Virus record (IMG/VR): IMGVR_UViG_3300021426_000084
From: a virus
Lineage: Duplodnaviria > Heunggongvirae > Uroviricota > Caudoviricetes
Direction: 5' to 3' (one strand)
DNA: 64,000 nucleotides
The notes beneath the pieces were generated by a model that did not search any database, was not told where the DNA came from, and saw only the letters and a list, made by a program, of their open reading frames with translations. The number at the start of each line of letters is the position of its first letter. Position 1 is the first letter of the stretch. The position numbers and the translations under genes are program-made. Positions 1 to 31,094 of the stretch are shown piece by piece.

Positions 1-4
1 AGGG

Positions 5-280
5 TTGTTGAAGATGAATAAGATTAGATTTTTATTAGGCCGCTACGCTTCAGTATATACGGATTACAGTGCCTGTATGTACTGGGGAATAGATAAAGAC
101 GCCCGGATTACGCAACGGGATTACTGGCTTAAGAGATTGGCGCGAAAAGGTGTTGATGGCGCAGCATTGAAATACATTGAGCTATTATGTGATTATGACC
201 CCGGCAATATGAGTGATGTTTCAGAAGAAATAATCTGTGAAGCCTGTGATAAAGTTGCTGCAGACATAGTGGCGGCATAA
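5..280 (+). CDS. hypothetical protein (frame open to window start; first ATG at 14)
   Basis: 91-aa ORF in track; no recognisable motif. Confidence 0.45.
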   Translation: MLKMNKIRFLLGRYASVYTDYSACMYWGIDKDARITQRDYWLKRLARKGVDGAALKYIELLCDYDPGNMSDVSEEIICEACDKVAADIVAA

Positions 281-358
281 AATATTGACACCTATGAAAT
301 GTTGAGTTGCCGTCTAGTTTTGAAGAGCTAGGCGGTTGTAATTAGGGAGGTTTTTCAA

Positions 359-691
359 ATGAAATTGACAAATTCCAACGGTGCAATATTTGAAATTAAC
401 CCGCTCGATTTAATGGAACGGGTCAACAAGGAAGGCATCGACCGGTTCTTTCATCCGAAAGAACTCTTCATAAAGAATGCCCAGGAGGGCGACTGGGCAG
501 AATATTTTGTAGTTCCTACTTCGAACGGGATTTATAATCCCGAAAGCAATAAAGTAGAATTCTGCACCCCGTTTTGGAATGGGGAGCTTACGGATGTAAG
601 AATAAAAAGGGTAGTATTTAGGAACGGTCAATGGCATTATGACCGCCATGCAGAAAGGGAAGCTTTTCCCGGCTGCACTTCCGAATACTGA
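359..691 (+). CDS. hypothetical protein
   Basis: 110-aa ORF with SD agggagg 8 nt upstream. Confidence 0.6.
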   Translation: MKLTNSNGAIFEINPLDLMERVNKEGIDRFFHPKELFIKNAQEGDWAEYFVVPTSNGIYNPESNKVEFCTPFWNGELTDVRIKRVVFRNGQWHYDRHAEREAFPGCTSEY

Positions 692-736
692 GTTTCACCA
701 CCTGAAGAAGCAGATAAAAAGCAGGGAGGCGAGAAT

Positions 737-901
737 ATGAACGAAGAGGAAGCAATTAAAATGCTGGAAGCTTGCCAGAGTAGTCCCGACATCGAAACTG
801 CCCATGAAGAAGCAGATGAAATTATCGCAGAGTTTCTTGTGGACGCAGGTTACAAAGAAGTAGCCGAGGCTTATGACAGAGTTCATAAGTGGTACTCTTA
901 A
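737..901 (+). CDS. small acidic hypothetical protein (54 aa)
   Basis: not in track (<60 aa); SD gcagggagg before ATG 737; fills the intergenic gap on the coding strand. Confidence 0.4.
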   Translation: MNEEEAIKMLEACQSSPDIETAHEEADEIIAEFLVDAGYKEVAEAYDRVHKWYS

Positions 902-972
902 AAGGATCTTGGGAAGTACCGGCGGTTTGGAGAGTTGTTGCAAACTGATTTAAGAAGGTGAAGGGTGAGAAA

Positions 973-1506
973 ATGAGCGTTTTTGTTATGCAGAGAATCA
1001 AAGTGGCAGACGGAGGTGTAACGATTAAGGATTTACTGGGAAGCCTTGTCCGCCCGCATGAAGTGTTCCGTTACGATCGTGATGATGAAGTGACAAGCAG
1101 AATACTGGAGGAAGTTATTGACCTTCGCGAACTCGGCGTAAACTACGATGAGGAGATTAAGAAAGGTTATCGCGTAAAAGCTTTCCTGAAAGACAAAGAA
1201 AAATTTCTTAGCAAGGGATTTTCGGTAGCTGAGCCGGCTAAAGATGATGCGCCGGACACTTACGTTACTTATTCCCGCCCTTGGGATATGCATGTAGCAG
1301 ATTGTCTGGGCATGGAACAGGTTGAATACAGCGATGACGGTACGGAACTTAATTGGTGGGGAAATTACATTTGCAATGAAGATATTGCGCCGGCCATTAG
1401 TAAAAAGTTTCCGAAAGTCAAATTTGAGCTGGAAGAAATCGTAGAGTATGAATTGACAAGCAAAGTTGTTATCCAAAACGGCAAGCTGATTGAGCGCATA
1501 AAATAA
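973..1506 (+). CDS. hypothetical protein
   Basis: ORF 958-1506; ATG 973 preceded by aaggtgaagggtgag. Confidence 0.55.
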   Translation: MSVFVMQRIKVADGGVTIKDLLGSLVRPHEVFRYDRDDEVTSRILEEVIDLRELGVNYDEEIKKGYRVKAFLKDKEKFLSKGFSVAEPAKDDAPDTYVTYSRPWDMHVADCLGMEQVEYSDDGTELNWWGNYICNEDIAPAISKKFPKVKFELEEIVEYELTSKVVIQNGKLIERIK

Positions 1507-1548
1507 ACGCCCATGAACTGACGGTATGAATAAGAAAGGAAAATAAAA

Positions 1549-1881
1549 ATGAACGAAACTATCAGTAAGTGGATAGAAGAACATAGCCGGAATACAGAAT
1601 TGGCGCCGGCTAAGATTGCTGCGCTGTTAAAAGATAGCGGCGTAAGCGCGATCGATGCATATGAAGCGGTTAAAGCCTTTAGGATTATTGGCGAGCTCAA
1701 AATGAAGTCGCTGCGAGCTGAAGAAGGGCTTCTGAGAGATGGTGAAGATGGCACCGGCGTAAGCGAAGAAGTCATCAGGGAGTGCATTGACACTATATTG
1801 ATATATCCGGCTTTCATTAATTATCGGGTAGGACAAGAAGTGGTAAAAGCATATAATATTGACGATAAAAAGACTGCGTAA
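1549..1881 (+). CDS. hypothetical protein
   Basis: 110-aa ORF with SD aagaaagga. Confidence 0.55.
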   Translation: MNETISKWIEEHSRNTELAPAKIAALLKDSGVSAIDAYEAVKAFRIIGELKMKSLRAEEGLLRDGEDGTGVSEEVIRECIDTILIYPAFINYRVGQEVVKAYNIDDKKTA

Positions 1882-1897
1882 GAAAGGACGAGTTGAA

Positions 1898-2452
1898 ATG
1901 AATAAAAAAGACGCTATCGAAACAGCGAAGGGAATTGGGGAAGTGGCCGCCCGCCGCCACAATTATAACATGTTAAGCGGCAAGGTAAATGAACTTTGGC
2001 AGCTTAAAGCAACATATGGCACAATCGTTCGCAATCTTGAAAGTGGAAAGTGCTCGGCTGAAGAAAATAAGGAAGCCGTCGAAACCGAGACAAAAATCCT
2101 CCACCTCCTTGAAGATATGGTAGCAAAAGAAAGATTTGCTATTGACTGCATCGGTATGTACAACTTTATCTGCAAAGAGCTGTTTGGTGAAGACTCTATT
2201 GATGGCGATAACAATCCGGATCCCGATGACAAGTATAAGGCAGCGAAGGAAGAAATTGAGCGATTAAAAGCAGAGAATAAAGACCTGCGACAGAAAATGA
2301 CAGAACGTGACCTTAGCTGGACAGATATGTACCGCAAAAACGGCGACCTTAGAAAAAAACTGGCCGTCCAGGATAGATACCGTAAACACTGGAAAGAAAA
2401 GTATGAAAACCTGCTTAAGGAAGTAGGGCAGCGGGACGCCAAAGTGGCGTAA
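1898..2452 (+). CDS. coiled-coil hypothetical protein
   Basis: K/E-rich heptad-like C-terminus; SD gaaagga before ATG 1898. Confidence 0.55.
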   Translation: MNKKDAIETAKGIGEVAARRHNYNMLSGKVNELWQLKATYGTIVRNLESGKCSAEENKEAVETETKILHLLEDMVAKERFAIDCIGMYNFICKELFGEDSIDGDNNPDPDDKYKAAKEEIERLKAENKDLRQKMTERDLSWTDMYRKNGDLRKKLAVQDRYRKHWKEKYENLLKEVGQRDAKVA

Positions 2453-2469
2453 AAAAAGGAGGGTTTTCG

Positions 2470-2808
2470 TTGAAAAAGAAAATTATTGCTTCATTTATAG
2501 CTGCCGGCATTATGAGCGCGAGCGTAGCGAGCGCAGGCCAAGTTACGACACACGCAGAAATGCCCGGTAAGACGGACTACATCTACTGCATGGAAACCTA
2601 TAAAGCGGATTCCTTAAAAGCAGAATCGCTTGATGATATCGTGGACTACTATCTCACCAAAAACACCTATGGTGAAAGAGCTCATGAGGAATTCAAGGAA
2701 GGAATTCTGGAAGTCAACCCATGGTTGTGTGACCGTAAGAAGGAACATGGCCAGATAATGGTTGGCGCCGGCGAAGAAATTGTGGTATACTACTGGAAGA
2801 AGAAGTAA
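2470..2808 (+). CDS. secreted small protein (N-terminal signal peptide)
   Basis: MKKKIIASFIAAGIMSASVASA signal-like N-terminus; TTG start after aaaggaggg. Confidence 0.55.
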   Translation: MKKKIIASFIAAGIMSASVASAGQVTTHAEMPGKTDYIYCMETYKADSLKAESLDDIVDYYLTKNTYGERAHEEFKEGILEVNPWLCDRKKEHGQIMVGAGEEIVVYYWKKK

Positions 2809-2859
2809 GTAGTTACCGCAAAACATGTAAGAAGTAAACTGAAAAGAAAGGTTAACGCC

Positions 2860-3306
2860 TTGGCCAATTGGAAGATTACAACCCCCTCCATTTACTGGAG
2901 CATAAAAAAAGAGCAAAAAGACAAAGAGCAGGAGCGGCATAAGAAGACAGCTGCACGCCTGTATCGCCAGCGAAATAGAGCCCGAAATATGGCTAAGCGG
3001 CATGAAGCTACTACAGATAGAAGGGCTAATGAACTGCGTCAGCTGGTTCTTAAAATAAAGGATTTGCGCAAGCGTAAGTTCAAGTGGAGAGAAATTGACA
3101 TTTTAATTAAGAAGCCCCGCAGCGCAACATTTTACTACCGGAATAAGTACCTGTGTGAAGGCGAAGATAGTGAAGTTGTGCGTGAATTTTTGTGCGCGCA
3201 GTGCCATGCGCCGGTTATCGTTACTAGCAAAGTAGACCGCAGAAGAAAGTTCTGCAGCAAGATTTGCGAAAAGCGCTACTGGCGCCACAGAAAAAATAAA
3301 AATTAA
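2860..3306 (+). CDS. basic protein with C-terminal Cys4 zinc-finger-like motif
   Basis: R/K-rich; CAQCHAP...CSKIC pairs. Confidence 0.5.
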   Translation: MANWKITTPSIYWSIKKEQKDKEQERHKKTAARLYRQRNRARNMAKRHEATTDRRANELRQLVLKIKDLRKRKFKWREIDILIKKPRSATFYYRNKYLCEGEDSEVVREFLCAQCHAPVIVTSKVDRRRKFCSKICEKRYWRHRKNKN

Positions 3307-3330
3307 AGAAGCTATAGAAAGGAAATCAAA

Positions 3331-3894
3331 ATGTTTGATGAATCCAAACTCAAGTTTGACCACTTCGTTGCTCTGACGGGAGCAGGCTGCAGCAAAGCAT
3401 CCGGTATCCCCACATTCGAGGAAGTCGACGGTTTGAAGCAGAAGCTTACCGTTGACTACAAGAAGTCAGAGCCGGAAAAGTTCAAGGCTGCTATGGAAGC
3501 GCTTAAAGCTTCTGTAAGAGACAAAGAGCCGAACGATGCGCATCTTGCTCTTGTAGAATATAATGTCCCCATCATTACTATGAATGTTGATGGCCTGCAC
3601 CAGAAAGCCGGCAGTAAGGTAGTTTATGAACTTCACGGTTCTGCAGCCGAAGATAACATCGTTCTTTACGGCGAAAATGTTCATTGTTATGATGAAGCTT
3701 ACGACCTCTTAAATGCCAACGTCGGGACACCAGATAATCATGTGTGCTTACTGATTATTGGTACATCCATGCAGACGCAGCTGGCAAATGAATTGAAATG
3801 GCACGCCATGACGTTCTGCAATATGTATGTCAAGACCATCAGTGAAGACGCAGAACATAAGGTTCGTGAGTTTTTGGAAAAGCATCATGTATAA
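3331..3894 (+). CDS. compact Sir2-family (sirtuin-like) NAD-binding protein
   Basis: GAGCSKASGIPTF (GAGIS-x-SGIP-F-like), LHGS and GTS motifs; no Zn-ribbon module; 187 aa. Confidence 0.55.
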   Translation: MFDESKLKFDHFVALTGAGCSKASGIPTFEEVDGLKQKLTVDYKKSEPEKFKAAMEALKASVRDKEPNDAHLALVEYNVPIITMNVDGLHQKAGSKVVYELHGSAAEDNIVLYGENVHCYDEAYDLLNANVGTPDNHVCLLIIGTSMQTQLANELKWHAMTFCNMYVKTISEDAEHKVREFLEKHHV

Positions 3895-3934
3895 AAATTA
3901 AGAAAATCAGATACAATTTAAGAAAGGAAAACAC

Positions 3935-4120
3935 ATGTTAGACGTATTAAGTGGATTAAAGAGGCTAACGTATCGTATACAGCCTATATCTCATATTCAG
4001 AAGAGAGAAAAGCGAAAGAAGCAACAGGAAGACCGCAAAACATATCACGAAGTCCAGAACTATATCAGCAAAATCCGGAAGGACATGGGATATAGCGATG
4101 GTGGAGAATGGCAGGCATAA
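3935..4120 (+). CDS. small basic hypothetical protein
   Basis: 61-aa ORF with SD aagaaagga. Confidence 0.4.
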   Translation: MLDVLSGLKRLTYRIQPISHIQKREKRKKQQEDRKTYHEVQNYISKIRKDMGYSDGGEWQA

Positions 4121-4145
4121 GCTAAAAAGAAAGGAATTTTCTATC

Positions 4146-4859
4146 ATGCAGAAAGAAGTCACTAGGAATGAGGCCATAGCATTGATAACTGCCGCAGTCG
4201 GTGCAGTTTACAGCGAATGTTTTGGGGAAAAGAAACATAAGCTTAGCAACTACGTTAGGCGGGCGGCAACGGTTGCCGGCCAGATAAGAAACACGGAAGA
4301 GAAAAGCCAATATATTCTTAGCCAAATGACCGAACTCAATTCTGAAATCGGAGAGCTGAGCTCGGAAGCACAACAAGTGCTTGCCATTTTTGATACTATG
4401 GTAAGTATGAGCAGTGTAGAGACTGAAGAATTGTGGGCGCGCATCAGGGATCTTGAGCAAAGAAATGATTCTAAGACCAGGGTTATTGAAGCCAATAACA
4501 ATCTTCAGAAGCGATTGGAAGTAGCACAGAGGGCACTGGGTGAGCTGCAAATCAAGCATGCGAAACTCCAGCAATCCTACAACACAATGGATAAAAATTT
4601 CCGCAGCAATGCGAATAAACTCATCGAACGAGTCAAAGAGGTTAACCAACTCAAAGAAAAGATGTCTAAGAGCAGCGTAAGAAGCTTAAAAAAAGAGCTG
4701 GAGGCTGCCAAATCAGAAATCTGCCGACTCCAGTGCAAGGTGGGTTCCGAAGACTGGGCACGCAGAGAATGGAAACGCAAATACGCAGAGCTTCTGCAGA
4801 AATATAAGGAACTGTCAAAAACAAGCGGCTTAACAGGCCGCAAAAGAAAAGCAGCGTAA
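4146..4859 (+). CDS. coiled-coil hypothetical protein
   Basis: long heptad-rich ORF; ATG 4146 after aaagaaagga. Confidence 0.55.
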   Translation: MQKEVTRNEAIALITAAVGAVYSECFGEKKHKLSNYVRRAATVAGQIRNTEEKSQYILSQMTELNSEIGELSSEAQQVLAIFDTMVSMSSVETEELWARIRDLEQRNDSKTRVIEANNNLQKRLEVAQRALGELQIKHAKLQQSYNTMDKNFRSNANKLIERVKEVNQLKEKMSKSSVRSLKKELEAAKSEICRLQCKVGSEDWARREWKRKYAELLQKYKELSKTSGLTGRKRKAA

Positions 4860-4909
4860 CCCCAACGAATGTTTTTGTAGGGGGTGAAAAAGAAAGGAAG
4901 TTGATTTAG

Positions 4910-5272
4910 ATGAAGTATGTAGTTAGAACGATGGAACGTCCGTACAGTGGTGGAGAATTTAAGTTGTACACCCGTCAGATGAACAGAGAGAAGTTTAATC
5001 TGATGATTAATATGCGCGGCTTTCACATTACACCGGAATATAGCGAGACAATTGTTGATAAAAATGGCAATCCGGCATTTATGCAGTACGGAATGACCTT
5101 TAACAGCAGCCTTCGGCACACGGCCTGCCGCGTAGTATCTATTGAACTGGACAATCAGCTCATTTACCAGTACGGTAATGAAGCTACCAAGTTTGTAGAT
5201 GAGATATTTAATAACGAACTTAGTATGCTCTGCAACATCAAGAAAGAGAAGGAGCAGGAGGCAGCAGCATGA
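4910..5272 (+). CDS. hypothetical protein
   Basis: 120-aa ORF with SD gaaaggaag. Confidence 0.55.
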   Translation: MKYVVRTMERPYSGGEFKLYTRQMNREKFNLMINMRGFHITPEYSETIVDKNGNPAFMQYGMTFNSSLRHTACRVVSIELDNQLIYQYGNEATKFVDEIFNNELSMLCNIKKEKEQEAAA

Positions 5273-5637
5273 TTGATATTGCGGGCAGAGAAATTGTTAC
5301 TGGCGATATTGTCATGGTGGGTGGTGCGTATTGCCAGTGTCACAATGGCTATTGGGTGGTAACACGTTCGCCTGGTGATGAGAACTGGATAGGCGAAGAC
5401 CATAGCCTCACAAAACTAAGTCGGTATGGTAAGGTAAGCTACGCAAAATATAATCTCAGCTCGTGGCCACTTATGCATTTTATTGCAAGCCAGAAGGTAG
5501 CAGACGAAGCGCGGATACATGATGAAAAATATGCATACATTCGCGTTATTGGACATACCGACATGCAGCCGGATGATTTTGAGAAGAGTAACCCAGAGCA
5601 TGTCGAGCGTATCGATTTTGGGAAGGCGCTGTTCTAA
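5269..5637 (+). CDS. hypothetical protein
   Basis: ATGA overlap with the upstream stop suggests coupling. Confidence 0.5.
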   Translation: MIDIAGREIVTGDIVMVGGAYCQCHNGYWVVTRSPGDENWIGEDHSLTKLSRYGKVSYAKYNLSSWPLMHFIASQKVADEARIHDEKYAYIRVIGHTDMQPDDFEKSNPEHVERIDFGKALF

Positions 5638-5658
5638 AAAAAGAAAGTGGGGAGAAAA

Positions 5659-6555
5659 ATGCAAAACGAGGAACTGGTCAAAAGCTGGCTAAAACTCAAG
5701 TATCCGCATGGCTATATGTTATATGCGGATTACAATGACCGCTTAAGCGATGAATCCATTTATGGGATTATAAGCTCAGATAATCCCCAGGCGGCATTAA
5801 ATGAAAAAATGTATTATACTTATATCGGCGATTGCGACTGTCGATATGAGCAGTACAAGGAAATCGCTAAAGAAGCGGCGGCAGAAATACCTGCAATTGC
5901 TAAAGAAGACATTGATGATGTGATTGAATGTGTGCAGGATAATCTTGAGATGACTTATCCGGTAGAACATTTTCTTAATCAGCGTGTACGCACGGATATT
6001 TATGTGGATACCGGCGACAGCGATCGTGATTTTACCTGTAATGCCATGTATCCGCATTACAATGGTAGAAAAGAGTGGCTGGAAGACCCGGATATTATAG
6101 AAGATGAATACAAGGACGCATCACTATTCTGGCTTGCAGAAACTCAGGGGTATAGCCGAGAAGATTTTGTAAAGTTTCTTCTGACTAATACAGACGATAC
6201 TACTTACAAAAAGAGCGGCTTTCTTAATAGCGTGTTCCAGGAAATGGCAAACATGCCTAGTCATATGCCGGCATTAGTTTTCTTACAGACTTATACTTTG
6301 CGGGAGCTCATTGATATTGTTCAGAATAAGAAAGATATCAGCATTATCCCCGGAACAATGTGTGGGCTGTATGATAACTGGCAGGGTGGCGGCGGCCCGT
6401 TAGGAATCGAAATTGAGAAGCCGATAACATTACCATACGATAAAGTATTCCGGATTTACCCGGCAACCTCTTATAGCTATAGCATTGACCAATGTTATAG
6501 CTTGATTGGTGAAGCATGGGACTATGCTAATGCGAAGCGGAGGAGAGTAGCTTGA
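5659..6555 (+). CDS. hypothetical protein (300 aa)
   Basis: ATG 5659 after aaagtgggga. Confidence 0.55.
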   Translation: MQNEELVKSWLKLKYPHGYMLYADYNDRLSDESIYGIISSDNPQAALNEKMYYTYIGDCDCRYEQYKEIAKEAAAEIPAIAKEDIDDVIECVQDNLEMTYPVEHFLNQRVRTDIYVDTGDSDRDFTCNAMYPHYNGRKEWLEDPDIIEDEYKDASLFWLAETQGYSREDFVKFLLTNTDDTTYKKSGFLNSVFQEMANMPSHMPALVFLQTYTLRELIDIVQNKKDISIIPGTMCGLYDNWQGGGGPLGIEIEKPITLPYDKVFRIYPATSYSYSIDQCYSLIGEAWDYANAKRRRVA

Positions 6556-6770
6556 TGATTACCGACAATGTACTTCAGTTTGAGGTTATGCTCAATATTT
6601 GTTTGATTCTTTTAGTTGTGTGTCTTTCTATGTATATTGTTGTACAAGGAAGAAAGCTTCAGCGCTGTGAGGCAAGAATAGAAGAGATGCGCTGTGTCGC
6701 AAGAAGACACAGGGAAGCTGAGAAGAATCGAGAGCGAGAACAACTCCGCAATGATTCGATAGCTGCATAA
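6552..6770 (+). CDS. small membrane protein
   Basis: one hydrophobic helix plus basic tail; ATGA overlap. Confidence 0.45.
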   Translation: MMITDNVLQFEVMLNICLILLVVCLSMYIVVQGRKLQRCEARIEEMRCVARRHREAEKNREREQLRNDSIAA

Positions 6771-6821
6771 TATTGCGGCTAGGCGCAGGATATTGTAAAA
6801 TAGGACAGGGAGGTGATTTGC

Positions 6822-7010
6822 ATGATTATCGGAGGTATAGGCATTTTAATTATATTCTTTATCTTCGTCAATATCATGGCACTGTTTGGCAATGAAGATG
6901 CACAGGACTGGGTAAAACAGGATCAGGAAAAAGCCGACGGGTGTCTCGCACCTGTTCTGTTGCTTGTTTTCTGTATCGGATTTGTTTTCTGGTGGTTCAC
7001 ACATCATTGA
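6822..7010 (+). CDS. small membrane protein (two TM helices)
   Basis: hydrophobic; SD gacagggaggtg. Confidence 0.5.
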   Translation: MIIGGIGILIIFFIFVNIMALFGNEDAQDWVKQDQEKADGCLAPVLLLVFCIGFVFWWFTHH

Positions 7011-7138
7011 TTTTTTACCCCACTCTTGGCGAGAAGGCTCCCGCTTCTTAAGCGGGAGGTGAATCGCCATAGTAAAACACAATTGAATATTATAAAATTG
7101 TATGATATAATAATCTTTACGAGAAAGGCTTGAAAATA

Positions 7139-7966
7139 ATGAGTTTTGGCAAGAGTAAAATCTATGTGCTGGATATCTTTGGTGAAATTTCTGCAACACC
7201 CGGTAGTTCGCTTGGCGGTAAAGCTACGGACATGCAGAAAGTTATCGACTTTTTGCATAAGGCCGAAATAGAGGGGCCGGAAGAAGTTAGCGGCATAATT
7301 ATCCGCCTCAATACTCCGGGCGGCACAACTGGTACATCTGAAGAAGTTGCCATGATGATTGGCAAAGTGAGACGGGCCGGGATTCCTGTAGTGGCATCCA
7401 TTGCGGATGTGTGCTGTTCTGGTGGTTACTGGATTGCATCGGCCTGCGACTATATCTTTGCCAACAGAACATCGATGACCGGCAGTATCGGTGTTATCAT
7501 GATGTTGCCGAACTACAAAGGACTTTCCGAAAAGGTCGGCGTTCATTATGTCACGGTCAAGGCTGGTAAAATGAAGGATATCGGGAATCCGTTCCGCGAA
7601 CTCAGCGAAGAAGAATCTGAGTTCTTACATCAGCATGCGGCCGAGACACATAAAATCTTCATCGATGAAGTGGTTAAGAACCGCCGGTTAACCCCAGGAG
7701 GAGAAGCTTGTACGTTGTTTGATGGCCGCCCATTTTCTGCGGAATTTGCAAAAGAAAACGGCATGATTGATGAAATTGGCACATTCTATGACGCCCTTGA
7801 CTACCTGCTTCTACGAATTGGCAAAAATGAAAAAGAAGTCAAAATCAAGACTGCCGTAAAAAGTAAGGGGGCCATCGCAAAATTATTCTCTGGTGAAATC
7901 AGCGACATCATCATGTCCATAATGCAAAAGTTTTTGGCTGGCGGAAACCAACTCATAATGCGATAA
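7139..7966 (+). CDS. sppA: S49-family serine peptidase (SppA/protease IV-like; ClpP/crotonase fold)
   Basis: SGGYWIASACDYIFANRTSMTGSIGVIM core motif. Confidence 0.7.
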   Translation: MSFGKSKIYVLDIFGEISATPGSSLGGKATDMQKVIDFLHKAEIEGPEEVSGIIIRLNTPGGTTGTSEEVAMMIGKVRRAGIPVVASIADVCCSGGYWIASACDYIFANRTSMTGSIGVIMMLPNYKGLSEKVGVHYVTVKAGKMKDIGNPFRELSEEESEFLHQHAAETHKIFIDEVVKNRRLTPGGEACTLFDGRPFSAEFAKENGMIDEIGTFYDALDYLLLRIGKNEKEVKIKTAVKSKGAIAKLFSGEISDIIMSIMQKFLAGGNQLIMR

Positions 7967-7997
7967 AGAATAAAATTAAGAAAGGATATAGCATATA

Positions 7998-8795
7998 ATG
8001 TCAAGAGAATTGCCGAAGGCCGGAGAAATCTGGCATCATTTTAAGAACCACGACTACAAAATCATCGCCTGCCCGGTATTGCATACTGAAACGGATGAGC
8101 GTATGGTTTGCTATCAGGCTCTTTATGGAGCTTTCGGGATTTATGTCCGCCCGCTTCAGATGTTCATGAGCGAAGTTGACCATGATAAGTATCCAGAGGT
8201 CAAGCAGAAGTACCGTTTCGAGAAAAAGGAAGAAGAAAAGACGAATATGAAAAAGGTTCGGTATGCAACCGTACATCCTTTTAACAACTTTCTTGCTTGT
8301 TATACCGAAATCGCGGAAGATAGTACTCTGGACGAGATATTCGATAAAATCCAGCAGCCCCATAAGATGGTTTGGTTCTACTGCGTATGTCCGCATTTGT
8401 CGGATGCTGATTATGGCAGAATGCTGAAGAAAAGCTGGATAATAGAAGGAAATCCAAATCAGGACGAACGCATTACTCAGGAAACGTCCGTGATGCTTTT
8501 CAGACATGCGAAAAAAGATTGCATCATGAATAAGGAAGAACTGGAATATTATCAGAGTCTGCCCGATGTATTGACAGTATATCGCGGTGTAAGTCCGGGC
8601 CGGGCGCGTATCGGTCTTTCTTGGACAAACAATAAAGAAGTGGCTTTGCGGTATAAGAAGCGCTTCGAAGAAGAAGACAAAGAGGGATTTATCTTAAAGG
8701 CCAGGGTCGCAAAGGAGCATGTCCTTGCTTATTTCAAGCAGGACGACGAGTTGATTATAAATCCATACGAGCTGGAAGACCTCGTGGAATTATAA
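7998..8795 (+). CDS. hypothetical protein with N-terminal DUF1653-like domain
   Basis: [15 protein letters not shown]...[20 protein letters not shown] pattern typical of DUF1653. Confidence 0.45.
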
Positions 8796-8836
8796 TCTGG
8801 CTGGCTCAAAAACCTGAGACTTGGAAGGAGAGCGCA

Positions 8837-9418
8837 ATGAAAAAAGAAATCATCTTTCCCTGTGGGGATAATTTGACGGCGAAGGCTGATTACGGCTATG
8901 CCTATGGCCGGCTTGTAAGGCATATCCCCATTGACGGCAAGGGTAAGCCGCAAATTATCGGGCCGTGCGGCGTATGTACAAAGTGCGACAAGATTACTCA
9001 TACTGCAAAGTATATGGATACTGAAACCGGTGAAGAGAGAAGGTACGAAGACACTTTCTGTATCGGCTATTCACAGGAATATCTTGATAACAAAGATAAG
9101 CCTACGGCTGATTATGTTGATATGGACGGCGGCATAATCGGGCCATATACTATCGAAGTTATCATCCAGTCCGAAGATTATCGCCGTGTAGAATATATCA
9201 AAGGCAAATCCGAAGGCTGTAGCATGCTTGACTTAATGGATTTTGACATCGATGAGCTATTAGAAACAGCTAAGGAAAAAGATGGCCCGTGCTATCACCT
9301 CATTATGTTCAATATTTATACCGGCCGGCTTCAGGATATTGAATTTGAGAATGAGGAGCAAGTGAAGAACAGTATCATATCTGTACGCCTTCTGAAAGAA
9401 GAGGAAGATGCAGCATGA
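8837..9418 (+). CDS. hypothetical protein
   Basis: 193-aa ORF with SD ggaaggagag. Confidence 0.55.
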   Translation: MKKEIIFPCGDNLTAKADYGYAYGRLVRHIPIDGKGKPQIIGPCGVCTKCDKITHTAKYMDTETGEERRYEDTFCIGYSQEYLDNKDKPTADYVDMDGGIIGPYTIEVIIQSEDYRRVEYIKGKSEGCSMLDLMDFDIDELLETAKEKDGPCYHLIMFNIYTGRLQDIEFENEEQVKNSIISVRLLKEEEDAA

Positions 9419-9855
9419 AAGACTGGAAAGAAGTCAAAGGTGTAATAACCCCCGGCGGCGACGCGGCATGGATATGTCCGGTGTGTGGCGATGAAAGCCG
9501 GGAGTCGTATCACGTCTATGGTATTGAGTGTCCGGAGAACAAGCTCAATCGCTGCCCGCATTGCGGTGAGATGCTGAAATACCCCTGGGAGAAAAATAAA
9601 ACCAATATTGACCATTTTCCTCTGTTGGTAGTAACCAAAGGGAATACGGATGGTTCTTTGGTCAAAGACGATATTGTCCACTATGATGCAAAGGGCAATC
9701 TTGTTCTACATCTGCCATCCGCATATGGCGGCGGCTGGATGAGCAAGGAAGAACTAACGCCGGAGATAACCGACTTTGAATACGTTGAACATGAAAAATA
9801 TGCCGTTAAAAGCATCAATGGCAGAGAGTTCATTGTAGGGAAGGACATGATATAA
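9415..9855 (+). CDS. zinc-ribbon protein
   Basis: CPVCG...CPHCGE; ATGA overlap. Confidence 0.5.
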   Translation: MKDWKEVKGVITPGGDAAWICPVCGDESRESYHVYGIECPENKLNRCPHCGEMLKYPWEKNKTNIDHFPLLVVTKGNTDGSLVKDDIVHYDAKGNLVLHLPSAYGGGWMSKEELTPEITDFEYVEHEKYAVKSINGREFIVGKDMI

Positions 9856-10328
9856 TGGGATATATTTTTAGACTTCGCAATGCTGACAAAGGGGGCGAAA
9901 TAGTCGCCCAAGCACGAGCCGAAGAATATCCATCTAAAGAATCTATTGAAGATAATCTGCGGCTTTTCAAGATTGATGATTATGAGCCGGACGACTTCAA
10001 GGAAAACTTATTTGACGTTCGCAGCAGTATCGAAGATTGTGACTATGTGGTATCTATCTACAAAGAGGATGAGCCAGACCCGTATGAAGATATGGCCAGA
10101 AGATGCCAGGAAACTCGCGAGAGACTGCAAAGATACGTCGTCAGGCCGAGAAAACGTGTGCCGCAGAAAAAGACGGAAAAACAGAAGGTCTTGGAAGAAG
10201 CGGCGACCATGCTAACGTCTGAAGGCTGCCTTTCCATTTACCCGGACGATATCGAAGACCTGTACGAAGATGGAATGAACACAGAAGATATCATCAAGCG
10301 TTTCAACGAAAGAGGTACGTGGCTGTAA
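9855..10328 (+). CDS. acidic hypothetical protein
   Basis: 157-aa ORF. Confidence 0.5.
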   Translation: MGYIFRLRNADKGGEIVAQARAEEYPSKESIEDNLRLFKIDDYEPDDFKENLFDVRSSIEDCDYVVSIYKEDEPDPYEDMARRCQETRERLQRYVVRPRKRVPQKKTEKQKVLEEAATMLTSEGCLSIYPDDIEDLYEDGMNTEDIIKRFNERGTWL

Positions 10329-10345
10329 GAAGGAGGAATCAAACA

Positions 10346-10633
10346 ATGTCAGTATATGCTATAAGCGGATTCAATAACAGCAATTATGAAGGCATTTTTA
10401 CGCTTCTTTTTGACAGCGAAGAAAAGATGATAGCCGAAGTAGAGGATATGATTGCCAGCGATATGGGATTGTCGCGGGCAGCCTTTATCCGGTTACGGCG
10501 AGAAGATAAAACCAAATTTGACGACTGGTTCACAGATAGCGGCGACCGGACTTATGAAAAGTGTCTTGAAGAAGGCGCTTATTACTGCAGTAATGGCTAT
10601 GAGCTCTCATGGGGAGAGTATGAAGTAAGATAA
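10346..10633 (+). CDS. hypothetical protein
   Basis: ATG 10346 after aaggagg. Confidence 0.55.
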   Translation: MSVYAISGFNNSNYEGIFTLLFDSEEKMIAEVEDMIASDMGLSRAAFIRLRREDKTKFDDWFTDSGDRTYEKCLEEGAYYCSNGYELSWGEYEVR

Positions 10634-10645
10634 GGATTTTGAATA

Positions 10646-11320
10646 ATGATAAAGTTTAAAGGCGCAAATATTGAAAAGATTATGTTGGCAACGTCCAACA
10701 AGGGCAAGATTCGCGAACTTCGGGAACTGTTTTCGGACGTTCCCGTAGAAATTGTTTCTATTGAAGACTTCTTCGGCGACAATCTGCCTACCGAGCCAGA
10801 AGAAAATGCAAAAACATTTGCCGGCAACGCAAAAATCAAAGCTGATTATTACGCCCGCCTCTCAGGGATGCCTTGCATCGCTGACGATTCTGGATTGCTG
10901 GTCAGTGAACTAAACGGAGCACCTGGACTGTATTCCCATCGTTTTGCCGCCACGGAAACCAATCCTAACCCAACTGACGACGACAAGAACAAGAAGCTTA
11001 TCGAATTGCTTCATCTTAATGGCTTATCAGAGTCCGACGCTGAGTACTATTGCGCCATAACAATGATTATTCCTAAAAGCATTGGCGTAGATTGTGATTA
11101 TGAGTTCCCGAATATAGGCAGCCTGTATGGCAAGTTCAAAGATGTTGCCTCTGGTACAAACGGATTCTCTTTCGATAAGCACTTTTATCTGAAGGAATAC
11201 GATTATAAGAAAACGGCAGCTGATATTTCTCCTGAAGAAAAGAATCGAATCAGTCACCGTGCCATTGCTATGAACAGGCTAAAAGACGACATCAAACGCT
11301 TTTTTGAGTTTGGAGGATAA
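10646..11320 (+). CDS. rdgB: non-canonical purine NTP pyrophosphatase (RdgB/Ham1, ITPase family)
   Basis: ATSNKGKIRELRELF ... ADDSGL ... NGAPGLYSHRFA motifs. Confidence 0.75.
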   Translation: MIKFKGANIEKIMLATSNKGKIRELRELFSDVPVEIVSIEDFFGDNLPTEPEENAKTFAGNAKIKADYYARLSGMPCIADDSGLLVSELNGAPGLYSHRFAATETNPNPTDDDKNKKLIELLHLNGLSESDAEYYCAITMIIPKSIGVDCDYEFPNIGSLYGKFKDVASGTNGFSFDKHFYLKEYDYKKTAADISPEEKNRISHRAIAMNRLKDDIKRFFEFGG

Positions 11321-11321
11321 T

Positions 11322-11603
11322 ATGACAAAAGACAAATTTTCGCCAAAAATTGGCGAGACGTATTTCACGATTGCGAAGTACTGCAGTAAGCCTTGGAAAG
11401 TTTGCGAGTTTGTATTCAAAAATAATATTGAAGACAGAATACGCATAAACCAGGGCGGTTGCTATAAAACCAGAGAAGAAGCTGAGGCAAAATGCAAAAA
11501 AATTGAAGAAATGCGCAATAACGGAGACCTTGCCGGTGAAATAAGCGCTGAATACGGACTGAACTTTAGTCCGGAAGACAAAGAATGGCTTAATAATCTT
11601 TAA
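11322..11603 (+). CDS. hypothetical protein
   Basis: ATG 11322 after ggagga. Confidence 0.5.
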   Translation: MTKDKFSPKIGETYFTIAKYCSKPWKVCEFVFKNNIEDRIRINQGGCYKTREEAEAKCKKIEEMRNNGDLAGEISAEYGLNFSPEDKEWLNNL

Positions 11604-11615
11604 GGGGCATGAACG

Positions 11616-12113
11616 GTGAAAGTAACGATTAATGGCCATGAGTTCAACTACTCTGGCTCAGGAAGTATATCCGTCAATGGTAACCATGTGGTAATCAACG
11701 GCCAGACTATTGATGGCGAATTCATGGAAAGCAAGGTCATCGATATTTGTGTCGAGGGTAATGTAGAGCACATCGAATCGACCGGTTCCGTAGCTGTCAA
11801 TGGTAACGTAGACCGCGTGGAGGCCGGCGGCACGGTTAAAGTCAGCGGTGACGCTGCTAGTGTTAATGCCGGTGGCAGCGTACTTGTTGAAGGTCAGGTA
11901 CATGGCGATATCAATGCGGGCGGAAGCGTGCATTGTGAAGAATGCAAATCATCCCAGACGAATGACCGGCAGTATTATGAAAAGGTCATTAAAGATGCTT
12001 ATGAGAGCAAAAAGGGTTTAGAAACCGTAGAAGAAGGCATACATTTTACAGATGCGCTTCGAGCCCTGTTCGGTACAAAATTGTATAATAAAAAGGGAAG
12101 TGGCAGGATATGA
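11616..12113 (+). CDS. beta-helical repeat protein (bactofilin-like)
   Basis: repeated V-N-G-N / A-G-G-S-V segments. Confidence 0.4.
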   Translation: MKVTINGHEFNYSGSGSISVNGNHVVINGQTIDGEFMESKVIDICVEGNVEHIESTGSVAVNGNVDRVEAGGTVKVSGDAASVNAGGSVLVEGQVHGDINAGGSVHCEECKSSQTNDRQYYEKVIKDAYESKKGLETVEEGIHFTDALRALFGTKLYNKKGSGRI

Positions 12114-12331
12114 CTAAAGAGGACAAAGAGCAGTTGTTTTGGGACGAATTGGGTTTTGCGCTTGAAGAAGCCAAACGGCACAATAAAAACTTCTGTGAAT
12201 ACTGCCCCGCTTTTCCTGGTAAGTTTACAACAAGCGCTTGTCAAGGCCCAGAGAGCAGTTGTCGCAATGGAATTAAGTATCTATACGAGGTGATGACAAA
12301 TGACAAGAGAAGAACATTTAGCAGCTATTAA
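12110..12331 (+). CDS. small Cys-rich protein (C-x2-CPA family member 1)
   Basis: CEYCPAFPGKFTTSAC; paralogs at 51012, 51897 and 59865. Confidence 0.45.
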   Translation: MTKEDKEQLFWDELGFALEEAKRHNKNFCEYCPAFPGKFTTSACQGPESSCRNGIKYLYEVMTNDKRRTFSSY

Positions 12332-14228
12332 ACAGGCTGACCACGAATACTACGACCTGGATAATCCTACTCTGTCCGATGCAGAGTATGACGAACTTCG
12401 CCGCAGTTATATCGACCAGTACGGCGCCGAGGATTTGAACTATATTCCCGGCAATGCAACGGATGGCTTTGAAAAATTTCGCCATCCGACGCCGGTCACT
12501 TCCCTTGGTAAGTGGACCAAAGGCGTAGATAGCGAAGAAAATCTCAAGAAGAAAATTGATGAACTCTGGCCCGCCATCATCGAGCCTAAGTATGACGGCT
12601 TGACGGTTGTTGCTTATCCGAACGAGGACGGTTCCTGTAAATTTGTGACCCGTGGCTTGGGCGGCGAAGTAGGCGAAGTCCTGCCAAACTTCATTCCTGA
12701 GTACGAAGGGGCGGAAGTTAACAACTCCGGCTATCCGTTCCGCGGCGAAGTATTCATCACGCCGGCAAATTTCGAGAAGCTGAACCAGATGCTGATTGAA
12801 GCTGGCGAAGAGCCCATGAAGAACATGCGCAACGCGGCAGCAGGCTTATTGCGCCGTAAAGAGCGCAGCCCGTATCTGAATCTGCTCAGCTATATTGTCT
12901 ATGAAATCCCCGGCTTTGATGGCTCCATAGAAAAAGTAGAAGGGCTGTCATTCAAGACCAAATTCAATTTCACGGAATATCATTGGAAGGACACCGTAAA
13001 TGAAACGGTTGACTTCATTCCGCGGTGGTATGCAGATATCGTGACGAACGATACTTTTCCAATTGACGGAATGGTTATTAAATACCGTCTTGAGGGCGGC
13101 TTGAAGAAGTTTGGTAGCACGGGGCATCATCCCAAGAATGCCGTGGCCTGGAAGCCGGACAGAACTGTTTTCACGACGGTAGTCCGTGATGTTATCTGGC
13201 AGATGGGCCGAAGTAAAGCAACGCCCGTGGCTATCGTAGACCCCGTGGAAATCGACGGGGCGACAGTTACAAAAGCGTCTCTGCATAATGCGGAACAGAT
13301 TCGTAGGCTCGGCCTTAAAATTGGAGCTAAAGTCACAATTTTCAAGGCAAATGAGATAATTCCCCAAATCGGCGAGGTGCTTGAGCCGGGCGATAAGGAC
13401 ATTGTGCTTGATGTATGTCCTGCCTGTGGCGGCCCGTTGAAAACCGTCAATGGCCAGCAATTCTGCACAAATCCGGACTGCACTGAACGTATTGCTCAAA
13501 ACATCGCTTTTCTCGGTCAGAAAGATGTGCTAGACATCCCCGGCCTGTCTATTCAGACCGCCCGCAAGATGGTTGAAACATATCCTGACATTCTGGATTT
13601 GAAGCAGAACATCATCTTTGAGCTCAGCGTAGCAGAAATCAAGAAACTCCCCGGTTTTGCCGAAAAGTCAGCTCAAAAGTTATATGATGCTATTCAGGCC
13701 GCCCGCAAAGACGTAGAACTGCCGCGGTTTATCAAAGCACTCTGCATTCCTGGCATCGGTAATAATATCGGCAAACTTTTGGCCGATAAATATGGCAGCA
13801 TTGAGAAGATGATAGACTGGATTGAAGGCTCAAAAGAATGCAATACCAGTGATATTGTTGAGGAACAATTGAAGCAGATTAATGGCATCGGCCCAGTCGC
13901 CGCGAAAACCATCATGTCAGACGAATTTTGGGAAGCTGTGGAAACCATAAGACCTGTGTTCACTATTGCTCCGTATAAGAAGTCCGAAGTTGCGGTAGGT
14001 GAATTCGCCGGAAAAATTTTCGTGCTGACCGGCAAGATGGAGCATCCGCGCAGCTATTATGTCGAGAAAATCGAAGCGGCAGGTGGCAAGGAAGGTTCCT
14101 CTGTCAACAGCAAGACTGATTACTTGGTTATTGCTGACGTTAATAGCCAAAGCACTAAGGCAAAGAAGGCCCGTGAGCTTGGGACTAAGCTGATTTCTCC
14201 TGAAGAACTGGAAGAAATGCTGGAATAA
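12300..14228 (+). CDS. ligA: NAD-dependent DNA ligase
   Basis: KYDG adenylation motif, C-x2-C...C-x4-C Zn finger, HhH region and BRCT-like C-terminus; 642 aa. Confidence 0.85.
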   Translation: MTREEHLAAIKQADHEYYDLDNPTLSDAEYDELRRSYIDQYGAEDLNYIPGNATDGFEKFRHPTPVTSLGKWTKGVDSEENLKKKIDELWPAIIEPKYDGLTVVAYPNEDGSCKFVTRGLGGEVGEVLPNFIPEYEGAEVNNSGYPFRGEVFITPANFEKLNQMLIEAGEEPMKNMRNAAAGLLRRKERSPYLNLLSYIVYEIPGFDGSIEKVEGLSFKTKFNFTEYHWKDTVNETVDFIPRWYADIVTNDTFPIDGMVIKYRLEGGLKKFGSTGHHPKNAVAWKPDRTVFTTVVRDVIWQMGRSKATPVAIVDPVEIDGATVTKASLHNAEQIRRLGLKIGAKVTIFKANEIIPQIGEVLEPGDKDIVLDVCPACGGPLKTVNGQQFCTNPDCTERIAQNIAFLGQKDVLDIPGLSIQTARKMVETYPDILDLKQNIIFELSVAEIKKLPGFAEKSAQKLYDAIQAARKDVELPRFIKALCIPGIGNNIGKLLADKYGSIEKMIDWIEGSKECNTSDIVEEQLKQINGIGPVAAKTIMSDEFWEAVETIRPVFTIAPYKKSEVAVGEFAGKIFVLTGKMEHPRSYYVEKIEAAGGKEGSSVNSKTDYLVIADVNSQSTKAKKARELGTKLISPEELEEMLE

Positions 14229-15992: not shown

Positions 15993-16235
15993 ATGACCAA
16001 ATTTGATGGTAAAGAATATCCAGCTAAACCGTTGAATACCCCCTGTTTTGAGAAAAAGCCTGTCAATGTGGAAAGTTTAGAAAAATCTTTTTCTAATACT
16101 GAAGACTTTTATGCGTTCGACGAAGCACAAATTGTAGACGAAAAGACTTTCTCCTATATCCTGGACGACATTATTAATCGTAATAGGGAAAGTCTGGTAA
16201 AATTATCGAGGAAGCAATGCAATGAACCAGGTTAA
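15993..16235 (+). CDS. hypothetical protein
   Basis: 80-aa ORF. Confidence 0.45.
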   Translation: MTKFDGKEYPAKPLNTPCFEKKPVNVESLEKSFSNTEDFYAFDEAQIVDEKTFSYILDDIINRNRESLVKLSRKQCNEPG

Positions 16236-16635
16236 GGCAGGCGATTTGGTTGGCACTATTGTTGCCGCCAGCGAAAAATATCATACAGCGTTAACTCCGC
16301 TAAGGCTGCAAGCGATGCTTTTCTTTATCCAGAAAGAGTCGTTGTGGCGCCGGTTTATGCCGGCGTTTGACGACGATATTTGCGCTTGGGACTTTGGACC
16401 AGTTGTACCTGACGTATATTATGAGTATAGTCACTATGCCAGCATTCCAATAATCAACGTCGAGGAGAAAGAAATCGACAAGGAGCTTAGGGAAATTATA
16501 GATTGTGTGGCATACAGATACAGCGGCATTGCAACATGGAGACTCGTGGAGGCAATGATAAAAGACAAGGCATATATTAAGGCCCGTACGAGAGGAGATA
16601 ACATCGTCAAATTGGAGGGGATGCTTTATGGCTAA
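16222..16635 (+). CDS. hypothetical protein
   Basis: 137-aa ORF. Confidence 0.5.
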   Translation: MNQVKAGDLVGTIVAASEKYHTALTPLRLQAMLFFIQKESLWRRFMPAFDDDICAWDFGPVVPDVYYEYSHYASIPIINVEEKEIDKELREIIDCVAYRYSGIATWRLVEAMIKDKAYIKARTRGDNIVKLEGMLYG

Positions 16636-17240: not shown

Positions 17241-17681
17241 TTGGACATCAATATTAACAACTTAAAGAAATATGATACCGAACATGCTAAAGCGGGCGAT
17301 ATGCTGATTTCAGCTTATCGTTCCAGCTATAGCAGCCGTTGGGCCTTTAGTCAACATATCATTAAATCTGTATCTGATAAACGCGGCGACATTACGTTTG
17401 ATAATGGAAAACGGTTTGATCGCCAAGGACGGAGATACGGCAGACAAAGGTACGATACCAGTAATGATGTGCTGCTGGAGGTCAATGAGGATAATGTGAT
17501 AGAGATTAACGCCTATGCAAAACATCAGTCTTTGGTGTTTAAGACACGTAAGGCCCTGGAGGCTCTACTCAAAAATGGATGCAGCCGGTTAGACGATATG
17601 CCAACAGAAAAGATTGAGCAATTCTATGAAGTGGTAAAAGATTTTGCAGGAGGGGAATCAAATGAACTATTGGAGTGCTAA
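17241..17681 (+). CDS. hypothetical protein
   Basis: TTG start after aaggaaaagga. Confidence 0.45.
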   Translation: MDININNLKKYDTEHAKAGDMLISAYRSSYSSRWAFSQHIIKSVSDKRGDITFDNGKRFDRQGRRYGRQRYDTSNDVLLEVNEDNVIEINAYAKHQSLVFKTRKALEALLKNGCSRLDDMPTEKIEQFYEVVKDFAGGESNELLEC

Positions 17682-18420
17682 GCAGCAAAATGCCGAACGT
17701 GCCAGACGGCGCACAGAGGAATTCGAAGCGAACTTTACGCCGTCAATGAACTATGCGTTGGTCAGCACTACCGTATATGGCGGCAAAGACCAGAATGTCA
17801 TCGGCAACCCATTTACCGATATCTGTGAAGAATTTGAAGTGGTACAGATGTCTACGGCCGAAGCCATTTATGAGCTAGGGAATAACAACTGCATTGCTCT
17901 GAATTTCGCGTCATATAAAAATCCGGGCGGCGCGTACCTGAATGGCAGCTGCGCGCAGGAAGAATCTTTGTGTCACGAAAGCTGGTTGTATAACATTTTG
18001 GCTCGATTCCAGAGCTATTATGACTGGAACAAAAAGAATCTGAATCGCGGCTTATATAAAGACCGCGCTCTTTACACGCCGGATGTATATTTTAGCGACG
18101 GCGAAAGAAATGCCATAGCTGACATTCTTACCTGCGCTGCCCCGAATCGCAGTATCATTGTCAAAGGATACACCAACTTTACGGAGGAAGAGAACTATAA
18201 AGTTCTGCATGACCGTATGCTGTTCATGTCCAAGATTTGTTCTTTGAAAAAGAAGGACACACTTATTCTCGGCGCATGGGGATGCGGCGTGTTTAAACAG
18301 GACCCGAAAATTGTGGCAAGACTCATTCGCAATACTACATGGCGCGGCGTAAAGAAAATCGTACTGGCTGTCATTGATAAGCCAACGTATGAAGTATTCA
18401 AGAAAGTTTTTGAGGAATAA
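17662..18420 (+). CDS. PARG-like macrodomain protein (DUF2263/TIGR02452-type ADP-ribose hydrolase fold)
   Basis: NFASYKNPGGAYLNGSCAQEESLCHESWLY matches the bacterial-type PARG signature (G-G..QEE..C(R/H).S.LY); ATG 17662 after gcaggagggg. Confidence 0.6.
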   Translation: MNYWSAKQQNAERARRRTEEFEANFTPSMNYALVSTTVYGGKDQNVIGNPFTDICEEFEVVQMSTAEAIYELGNNNCIALNFASYKNPGGAYLNGSCAQEESLCHESWLYNILARFQSYYDWNKKNLNRGLYKDRALYTPDVYFSDGERNAIADILTCAAPNRSIIVKGYTNFTEEENYKVLHDRMLFMSKICSLKKKDTLILGAWGCGVFKQDPKIVARLIRNTTWRGVKKIVLAVIDKPTYEVFKKVFEE

Positions 18421-18437
18421 AGTCAGGAGGGATTATT

Positions 18438-31018: not shown

Positions 31019-31094
31019 GTACCTTTGGTGTAATTGGTAACACGGCAGTCTCCAAAACTGTAAGATGTTGGTTCGAGTCCAGCAGGGTATGCCA
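31019..31094 (+). tRNA. tRNA-Trp (CCA)
   Basis: cloverleaf with anticodon loop ctCCAaa; CCA end. Confidence 0.75.

Follow-up and report, generated by a model that had tools for sequence, protein, structure and literature searches.

A compact, zinc-less sirtuin gene in a large phage: family, distribution and predicted activity

What is left of a sirtuin once its zinc-binding module has been removed, and what could a phage use it for? The question is raised by a gene at positions 3331–3894 (plus strand, stop codon included) of a 64,000-nucleotide stretch of DNA from a Caudoviricetes virus (IMG/VR record IMGVR_UViG_3300021426_000084), the whole of which is referred to here as the window. The open reading frame (ORF) opens with an ATG, closes with a TAA and codes for 187 amino acids (aa), as an earlier sequence-only reading of the window had placed it. 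An AGGA element resembling a Shine-Dalgarno sequence (3320–3323, plus strand) was read from the sequence 7 nt before the ATG. The gene product was found to be a member of the sirtuin family, with similarity far above chance, and is predicted most likely to be a catalytically competent, compact canonical sirtuin of class U/III-like type. An origin in bacteria and a function as protein lysine deacylase dependent on nicotinamide adenine dinucleotide (NAD+) are predicted with slightly better than even confidence.

Family, fold and the missing zinc module

The window protein matched the Pfam family PF02146 (SIR2) with an E-value of 2.8e-16 and a score of 60.4 bits against a cutoff of 24 bits, as well as PHROG 2162 (Sir2), with an E-value of 1.3e-13. 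Among the Protein Data Bank (PDB) sequences, the best phmmer match was Sir2Tm (1yc5, E=8.9e-14), followed by Sir2Af2, SIRT5 and CobB. The profile and phmmer alignments cover chiefly the N-terminal ~105–115 residues and resume past a jump in the target. Residues 13–110 of the query were paired with Sir2Tm 17–124 and residues 105–155 with Sir2Tm 154–199, leaving ~35 Sir2Tm residues without a counterpart. An AlphaFold2 model based on a family alignment of 58 sequences reached a mean pLDDT value (local distance difference test, predicted) of 94.2 and a predicted template modelling (pTM) score of 0.89, and retains the helical lobe of the small domain, with helices at residues 35–76. When this model was compared with the PDB by Foldseek, the top 50 matches were all canonical sirtuins, with template modelling (TM) scores up to 0.79; lower Foldseek scores were obtained for SirTM (11.7), ThsA (11.3), SIRT7 (10.5), SIR2-HerA (9.4), Avs5 (8.9) and FAM118B (8.1). 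The Sir2-type NAD-binding fold proposed in the sequence-only reading is borne out by PF02146, PHROG 2162, phmmer, and AlphaFold2 with Foldseek, and the fold search suggested there as a check returned sirtuins, not a non-NAD-binding fold.

The motifs of the family are found in their usual order on the plus strand. The segment GAGCSKASGIPTF (aa 17–29; 3379–3417) comprises the Rossmann NAD-binding glycine motif and the start of the cofactor-binding loop, and is followed by E30-E31. TMNVD (aa 83–87; 3577–3591) is the nicotinamide (C-pocket) motif and the counterpart of canonical TQNID, and ELHGS (aa 100–104; 3628–3642), which aligns with Sir2Tm ELHGN, contains the catalytic H102, equivalent to Sir2Tm H116. 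NIVLYGE (aa 109–115; 3655–3675) aligns with Sir2Tm NIVFFGEN and corresponds to the canonical substrate-binding loop (P)N(I/V)VxFGE. The Rossmann-fold GTS motif is represented by IGTS (aa 143–146; 3757–3768), aligned with Sir2Tm LGSS; in established structures of canonical sirtuins, this motif is part of the lining of the NAD+ site. The three motifs quoted before, GAGCSKASGIPTF, ELHGS and IGTS, are thus all present in the protein.

In the usual description, a canonical sirtuin combines a Rossmann domain with a bipartite small domain, the zinc ribbon of which is needed for activity. In the window protein, not a single CxxC motif is present, and HGS is separated from NIVLYGE by only four residues, AAED (aa 105–108; 3643–3654, plus strand), the linker at which, in the MAFFT alignment, the ribbon has been excised. 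The same spacing is ~31–37 residues in Escherichia coli CobB, the Sir2 of phage WH1 and a clostridial sister group described below. In a MAFFT alignment of the window protein with E. coli CobB (host DNA in ON470619), Bacillus phage WH1 Sir2 and the Sir2-like protein of Salmonella jumbo phage 7t3, a single clean gap of ~32 columns was found between HG(S/N) and N(I/V)VLYG, exactly at the zinc-ribbon cysteine region of CobB and WH1; the helical module and the C-terminal tail of the window protein are shorter as well. The absence of the zinc module, claimed from the sequence at the outset, is therefore confirmed by the lack of CxxC and by the four residues that replace a module of ~30.

A compact branch shared by bacteria and phages

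A compact family was defined here by the motifs GIPTF-x-[ED], TMN[IV]D and VLYG and a length of ~175–205 aa; the window protein carries GIPTFEE, TMNVD and VLYGE within its 187 aa. A search of 5.8 billion proteins gave 1,315 matches, the best 120 of which are 161–210 aa long and 45–97% identical to the window protein, with at least 77% of the query covered (more than 90% in all but one). No CxxC was found in 119 of these 120 closest homologues. When 1.84 billion cluster representatives were searched with a profile, 67 clusters (50% identity) were recovered at E≤1e-30 and 10,346 sirtuin-like proteins at E≤1e-3. The compact family is thus a small branch of the sirtuins, but a distinct one.

The gene is carried by 17 IMG/VR viral contigs of 23–250 kb, and the window's own phage is also represented on contigs of 0.2–1 Mb and on one IMG/VR contig of 211 kb. 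A scan with one genome per species detected relatives in 285 genomes. The bacterial carriers include Selenomonadaceae, Veillonellaceae, Gastranaerophilales, Erysipelotrichaceae, Acholeplasmatales, cultured Psittacicella and many Clostridia. Their copies stand alone among housekeeping genes, as cobB does: one (P0094) lies between the genes for a pyruvate:ferredoxin oxidoreductase subunit and glycyl-tRNA synthetase, and another (P0051) on a stretch of chromosome that also contains TGT, NDK and genes of metabolism. The window sirtuin was not invented by the phage; its family is common to gut and rumen bacteria and their phages.

The origin of the zinc-less state was clarified by the 97 homologues extracted from the fetched loci, of which 63 have no CxxC and 33 have two. 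The latter are proteins of ~200 aa from Lutispora, Caloramator, Alkaliphilus, Natronincola, Caloranaerobacter and related genera, and hold CxxC-x17-CxxC exactly at the site of the deletion, as in HGNFDYVFCTRCNKHFDFSYVNKSLHCDECSGLLKPNIVLYGE; their sirtuin genes lie at ~5001–5600 in loci L054, L056, L060, L093, L103 and ~28 others. These clostridial proteins are 35–41% identical to the window protein and share with it GAGISKASGIPTF-x-[ED], TMN[IV]D, VLYG and the short C-terminus. They keep a minimal ribbon between HGN and N(I/V)VLYG, one that is gone from the window protein and its closer relatives, and they carry GTSFYTST in place of GTSMQT. No papers on these ribbon-bearing compact sirtuins were found in the open-access literature searched. 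Because a ribbon is borne by both the sister group and the outgroups, the zinc-less form appears to be a secondary, derived state inside the compact family. Phage and cellular copies were interleaved in a neighbour-joining tree, which implies repeated exchange. The same tree placed the zinc-bearing clade between two zinc-less groups, a placement that is unreliable for counting losses, and two independent losses of the ribbon are consequently not claimed.

The phage gene is under strong purifying selection. The ratio of nonsynonymous to synonymous substitution rates (dN/dS) was 0.050 against a 97%-identical IMG/VR copy and 0.057 against a 90%-identical copy, with dS of ~1 in the latter comparison. 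The 90%-identical copy (L113:6001–6564; ENA ERZ27274624, contig k141_273595) belongs to a different phage background, where it lies two small genes downstream of a PriCT primase and a DnaB helicase, with DUF1064 and RecJ genes nearby; its occurrence in an unrelated neighbourhood indicates that the gene has moved between phage genomes. The low dN/dS values, together with this copy in a different background, lead to the conclusion that the protein is functional and selected in phages. No near-identical DNA was found in isolated phages by megablast with positions 1–12000 of the window, and tblastn returned only distant full-length sirtuins with at most 40% identity.

In other phages, the compact sirtuin gene was found between RecJ and DNA polymerase III alpha genes, one small gene after a PD-(D/E)XK nuclease and before a primase-helicase, directly upstream of a C5 DNA methylase gene, 1 kb downstream of an RNA ligase gene (locus L029), or among large unannotated genes. 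Genes of replication and recombination recur beside it in at least three independent phage lineages. In the IMG/VR phage locus L023 (4139–5404), a NAPRTase gene lies 2.6 kb upstream of the compact sirtuin, and the Sir2 gene of Salmonella phage 7t3 (L007:4962–5723) is located ~2.2 kb downstream of that of NadV, a nicotinamide phosphoribosyltransferase, in the same gene run as NatV, a nicotinamide mononucleotide adenylyltransferase/adenosine diphosphate (ADP)-ribose pyrophosphatase. The occurrence of phage sirtuins near NAD-salvage genes more than once fits an NAD+-consuming enzyme. All-against-all clustering of ORFs revealed no neighbour shared across phage lineages in 23 phage loci and, in 80 cellular loci, no recurrent neighbour other than a Macro-domain gene (6/80). 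A fixed operon partner was therefore rejected.

MacroD/YmdB-type enzymes hydrolyse O-acetyl-ADP-ribose. In three independent cellular lineages, a Macro gene of this type (PF01661, E=9e-48) is the sirtuin's direct neighbour on the same strand, 180, 11 and 15 nt away (Macro genes at L080:2114–2674, L077:4451–4990 and L051:5558–6064; the L051 sirtuin is zinc-less). Such adjacency fits the disposal of O-acyl-ADP-ribose and is equally compatible with an ADP-ribosylation writer/eraser pair.

Predicted chemistry and the alternatives to a deacylase

Conservation was evaluated in 99 compact-family sequences and three outgroup sirtuins. Residues G17, G19, S21, F29, N85, D87 and the catalytic H102 are invariant in the 99 family members, as is G144, and S146 is present in 98 of them. 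Tyr113 is invariant in both the zinc-less and the ribbon-bearing groups, with V111, L112 and G114 invariant or nearly so, and the VLYG(D/E/Q) loop, counterpart of the FGE loop, is kept across the family. Position 31 is Glu or Asp in 98/99 sequences. In canonical sirtuins, the Asn/Asp pocket distorts and expels nicotinamide, the Phe of GIPxF shields the intermediate and the His activates the ribose hydroxyl.

With the zinc ribbon deleted and the helical module and C-terminus trimmed, the enzyme would be reduced to its Rossmann core and a short helical lobe, with the full machinery for nicotinamide cleavage. We infer that the protein would bind NAD+, expel nicotinamide through the Asn85/Asp87 pocket and use His102 to strip short acyl groups from protein lysines, yielding O-acyl-ADP-ribose. 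The gene was most likely acquired from bacteria bearing the same compact family, and would probably be expressed with early or replication genes, so that the acylation of host or phage proteins could be reset during infection. The nearest relatives by phmmer and Foldseek, Sir2Tm, Sir2Af2, SIRT5 and CobB, are biochemically proven deacylases, which supports this prediction. Deacylation is further favoured by the invariance of the residues for nicotinamide cleavage and deacylation in the 99 members, by the retention of the catalytic His, unlike SirTM, and by the adjacent MacroD-type genes in three lineages together with the stand-alone housekeeping context, like that of cobB.

Several observations weigh against a deacylase. 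Canonical sirtuins reportedly depend for their deacetylase activity on the zinc module (PMC12700824), which is absent here. Position 30, which corresponds to Sir2Tm Arg34, is never Arg in the family (M, E, Q, S or V; E30 in the window protein) and is Arg in all three outgroup sirtuins; the Arg after GIPxF sits near the NAD+ pyrophosphate in Sir2Tm (PMC4164625). Likewise, position 84, the Gln of QNxD, is Met in 99/99 family sequences and Q or T in the outgroups. With both Arg and Gln replaced throughout the family, NAD+ binding or chemistry may therefore differ. The NCBIfam CobB/deacylase equivalogs (NF040867, NF001753 and others) all scored far below their cutoffs, the best with 87.7 bits against 320, and their matches span only about residues 7–111. 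No compact-family member was found in the open-access literature searched. The writer/eraser interpretation of the Macro adjacency belongs on this side as well.

That interpretation leads to the transferase alternative, in which the protein would be a mono-ADP-ribosyltransferase like SirTM or SIRT4/6, acting on a host or phage protein or nucleic acid, possibly the replication machinery, with Macro- or PARG-type erasers. ADP-ribosyl transfer to macromolecules has been proposed as the activity of viral sirtuins (PMC9503650). The loss of Arg, the change of Gln to Met and an active site opened by the loss of the ribbon could favour another acceptor, and the gene is embedded in phage replication modules (RecJ/polymerase III alpha, primase/DnaB, PD-(D/E)XK with primase-helicase). 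Besides the Macro genes that adjoin it in three cellular lineages, a PARG-type macrodomain is encoded in the window; however, the latter is 14 kb away and unlinked to the sirtuin in other phages, and the Macro neighbour was present in just 6/80 cellular loci. In SirTM, the only proven dedicated class of sirtuin ADP-ribosyltransferases, the catalytic His is replaced by Gln, and both a conserved partner Arg and a domain that coordinates zinc are present (PMC4518038). The compact family does resemble it in that some cellular members lie directly beside a Macro-domain gene, but its His is invariant and the window protein has no zinc domain. No SirTM-type linkage was found either, there being no macro gene adjacent to the window sirtuin and neither GcvH-L nor LplA2 among the recurrent neighbour clusters of the 80 cellular loci. 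Membership in SirTM was rejected on the presence and invariance of H102, and ADP-ribosyl transfer, the main rival to deacylation, is considered unlikely. The range of "protein deacylase/ADP-ribosyltransferase" given in the sequence-only reading was a reasonable one.

A non-catalytic binder of NAD+ or ADP-ribose derivatives, acting as a sponge or regulator, would suit so small a protein, and one that has lost two NAD+-contacting residues and the zinc module. The strict invariance of His102, Asn85, Asp87 and Phe29 over ~100 diverged sequences is, however, of a kind expected from catalysis and beyond the needs of binding, and makes this the most improbable of the alternatives.

The same reading had also offered an anti-defence, decoy or NAD-salvage role, in which an NAD+ glycohydrolase would deplete or reroute NAD+, or the protein would serve as a decoy for Thoeris/DSR-type systems. 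The SIR2_2 defence NADases, a distant branch, are likewise without the zinc module (PMC12700824), and the Pro of the canonical GTSLxVxP strand is not conserved in the compact family. The defence SIR2 NADases (ThsA, DSR1/2, SIR2-HerA, SIR2-APAZ, Avs5; SIR2_2) and FAM118 share with the window protein the Rossmann core and the helical lobe; they differ in their sensor or partner domains and defence-island context, both lacking here, and the loss of zinc in the window protein appears secondary, derived from a zinc-containing compact sirtuin and not from SIR2_2. The match to PF13289 (SIR2_2) had an E-value of 0.013 and 16 bits, under the cutoff of 24.5 bits, and the PADLOC defence models gave no significant stretch (best E=0.0082). 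No sensor, oligomerisation or partner module (SLOG, HerA, pAgo/APAZ, STAND, TIR) was detected in the 187-aa single-domain protein, and no partner was conserved across loci. Membership in the defence branch was rejected on the sub-threshold PF13289 and PADLOC results and the lower Foldseek scores. In addition, an unregulated NADase would be toxic in the free-living bacteria in which the compact family occupies a housekeeping context. Such stand-alone copies in many bacterial chromosomes leave the proposed anti-defence, decoy or NAD-salvage role unsupported and show that the gene is no phage-specific countermeasure; NAD+ hydrolysis or an anti-defence function is rated as quite improbable.

RNA repair of the KptA type, as predicted for the majority of viral sirtuins, with ADP-ribose transferred to RNA 2'-phosphates left by nuclease attack on tRNA, is rated lower still, though above mere binding. 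Iyer et al. (2022) predicted such a function for a different clade of viral sirtuins, with links to genes for 2H, Nudix, cREC, RNA ligase and Swiss-army-knife HAD proteins (PMC9503650). The window encodes both HAD_SAK_2 (22556–23002) and RlaP (47069–47800), and the RNA ligase of L029 lies close to its sirtuin. The two window genes are, however, 19 and 44 kb from the sirtuin, no RNA-repair gene recurs beside it across phage lineages, and the bacterial members show no such linkage. The one isolated proteobacterial jumbo-phage sirtuin compared, that of 7t3, is an outgroup with 29% identity that keeps the Arg and the insert.

Among the known systems compared, the window protein works most like the class U/III prokaryotic sirtuins (Sir2-Af1/Af2, Sir2Tm, CobB), with which it shares GAG, GIPxF, NxD, the catalytic HG, the (F/Y)GE loop and GTS. 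These are ~235–280 aa long, compared with 187 aa and a ribbon deletion of ~30 aa in the window protein, which also differs in the missing loop Arg, the Met for the Gln of QNxD and scores below the CobB equivalog cutoffs. Phages 7t3 and WH1 likewise encode single-domain sirtuins in large genomes, but these are 236–253 aa long, keep the insert and the Arg, show ~27–30% identity and fall outside the compact family; the WH1 insert has one CxxC, and that of the 7t3 protein (253 aa) has no cysteines. Some sirtuins of acetic acid bacteria were found in silico to lack the zinc cysteines, but are ~350 aa long (PMC11820453). In the open-access literature searched, no account was found of a canonical sirtuin that is ~180 aa long and lacks the zinc module, an earlier description elsewhere being possible, and the proteins bear public names such as "hypothetical protein" or the generic "NAD-dependent deacetylase".

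The fold and the probable chemistry are ordinary; out of the ordinary are the architecture and the active-site substitutions found across the family. What is new is a conserved and selected lineage within the canonical branch from which the ribbon has been excised, accompanied by a ribbon-bearing sister group, and a pair of NAD+-contacting residues, usually deemed invariant, that are replaced family-wide. Tentatively, a canonical sirtuin's catalytic core may have its smallest natural form in the compact zinc-less family, either as an active deacylase or with a switched substrate. If it were a fully active deacylase, a sirtuin could do without its zinc module, without the "invariant" Arg of the loop and without the Gln of QNxD; alternatively, the concerted changes from Arg to acidic residues and from Gln to Met could mark a switch to another acceptor or nucleotide substrate, for example the ADP-ribosylation of replication proteins or nucleic acids. 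An active enzyme would provide a minimal sirtuin scaffold of ~180 aa, of value to enzymologists and protein engineers, and would bear on the reason for having a zinc module at all. The finding would gain interest if deacylation without zinc, or a switched substrate, were shown biochemically. Phages have repeatedly borrowed ADP-ribosylation to take over host replication or metabolism. The family has passed between large phages and the bacteria of gut and rumen; in the phages it often accompanies replication genes, and this context points to control of replication or metabolism in infection through lysine acylation or ADP-ribose, not to an arms race of NAD depletion.

Other genes of the window

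The immediate neighbours of the window sirtuin encode small phage proteins without annotated function, and no terminator-like sites were found between the genes flanking it. The gene directly upstream (2860–3306) encodes a basic protein of 148 aa that ends in a zinc-ribbon-like CAQC-x17-CSKIC and matches DUF7830, weakly, as well as three PHROGs of unknown function. The supply of a zinc ribbon in trans by this product was considered unlikely, as the gene accompanies the sirtuin only in this phage lineage.

The sequence-only reading had described the window as centred on NAD and ADP-ribose, citing an NAD-dependent ligase, a PARG-like macrodomain and a SLOG protein. The first two are real: the NAD-dependent DNA ligase LigA is encoded at 12300–14228, 8 kb from the sirtuin, and a microbial-type PARG macrodomain (PF10021, E=6.3e-27) at 17644–18420, 14 kb from it. 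Neither is linked to the sirtuin in other phages, and no SLOG-family match was obtained in the 49 window ORFs scanned against Pfam, a scan outside of which fell ORFs under ~110 aa and a few of 110–131 aa. An NAD/ADP-ribose theme has been described for jumbo phages generally (PMC7824862). Here it is a property of this large phage and gives no evidence on the function of the sirtuin.

A reverse transcriptase gene (18438–19706) begins 18 nt after the PARG gene, and its product matches the defence reverse transcriptase class UG27 nearly end to end (PADLOC, E=4.7e-178). The pair at 17644–19706 thus represents a DRT-type reverse transcriptase coupled with a PARG inside a phage. The HAD_SAK_2 "Swiss army knife" phosphatase (E=6.7e-25) and the RlaP nucleotidyltransferase (E=4.2e-5) mentioned above are, like the reverse transcriptase and the tRNA and tmRNA genes, neither next to the sirtuin nor tied to it in other phages. 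A SocA/Panacea antitoxin-type protein, a radical-SAM activase-like protein (Fer4_12) and an S49 peptidase are encoded at 16222–16635, 27778–28281 and 7130–7966.

An array of 12 tRNAs and a transfer-messenger RNA (tmRNA; 35997–36399, tag DEAEYRLAA) occupies 30290–42476, a region with almost no ORFs of at least 90 aa. Two of the tRNAs are of suppressor type, with the anticodons TTA (39861–39953, reading UAA) and CTA (40170–40246, reading UAG), which suggests stop-codon recoding in part of the phage genome.

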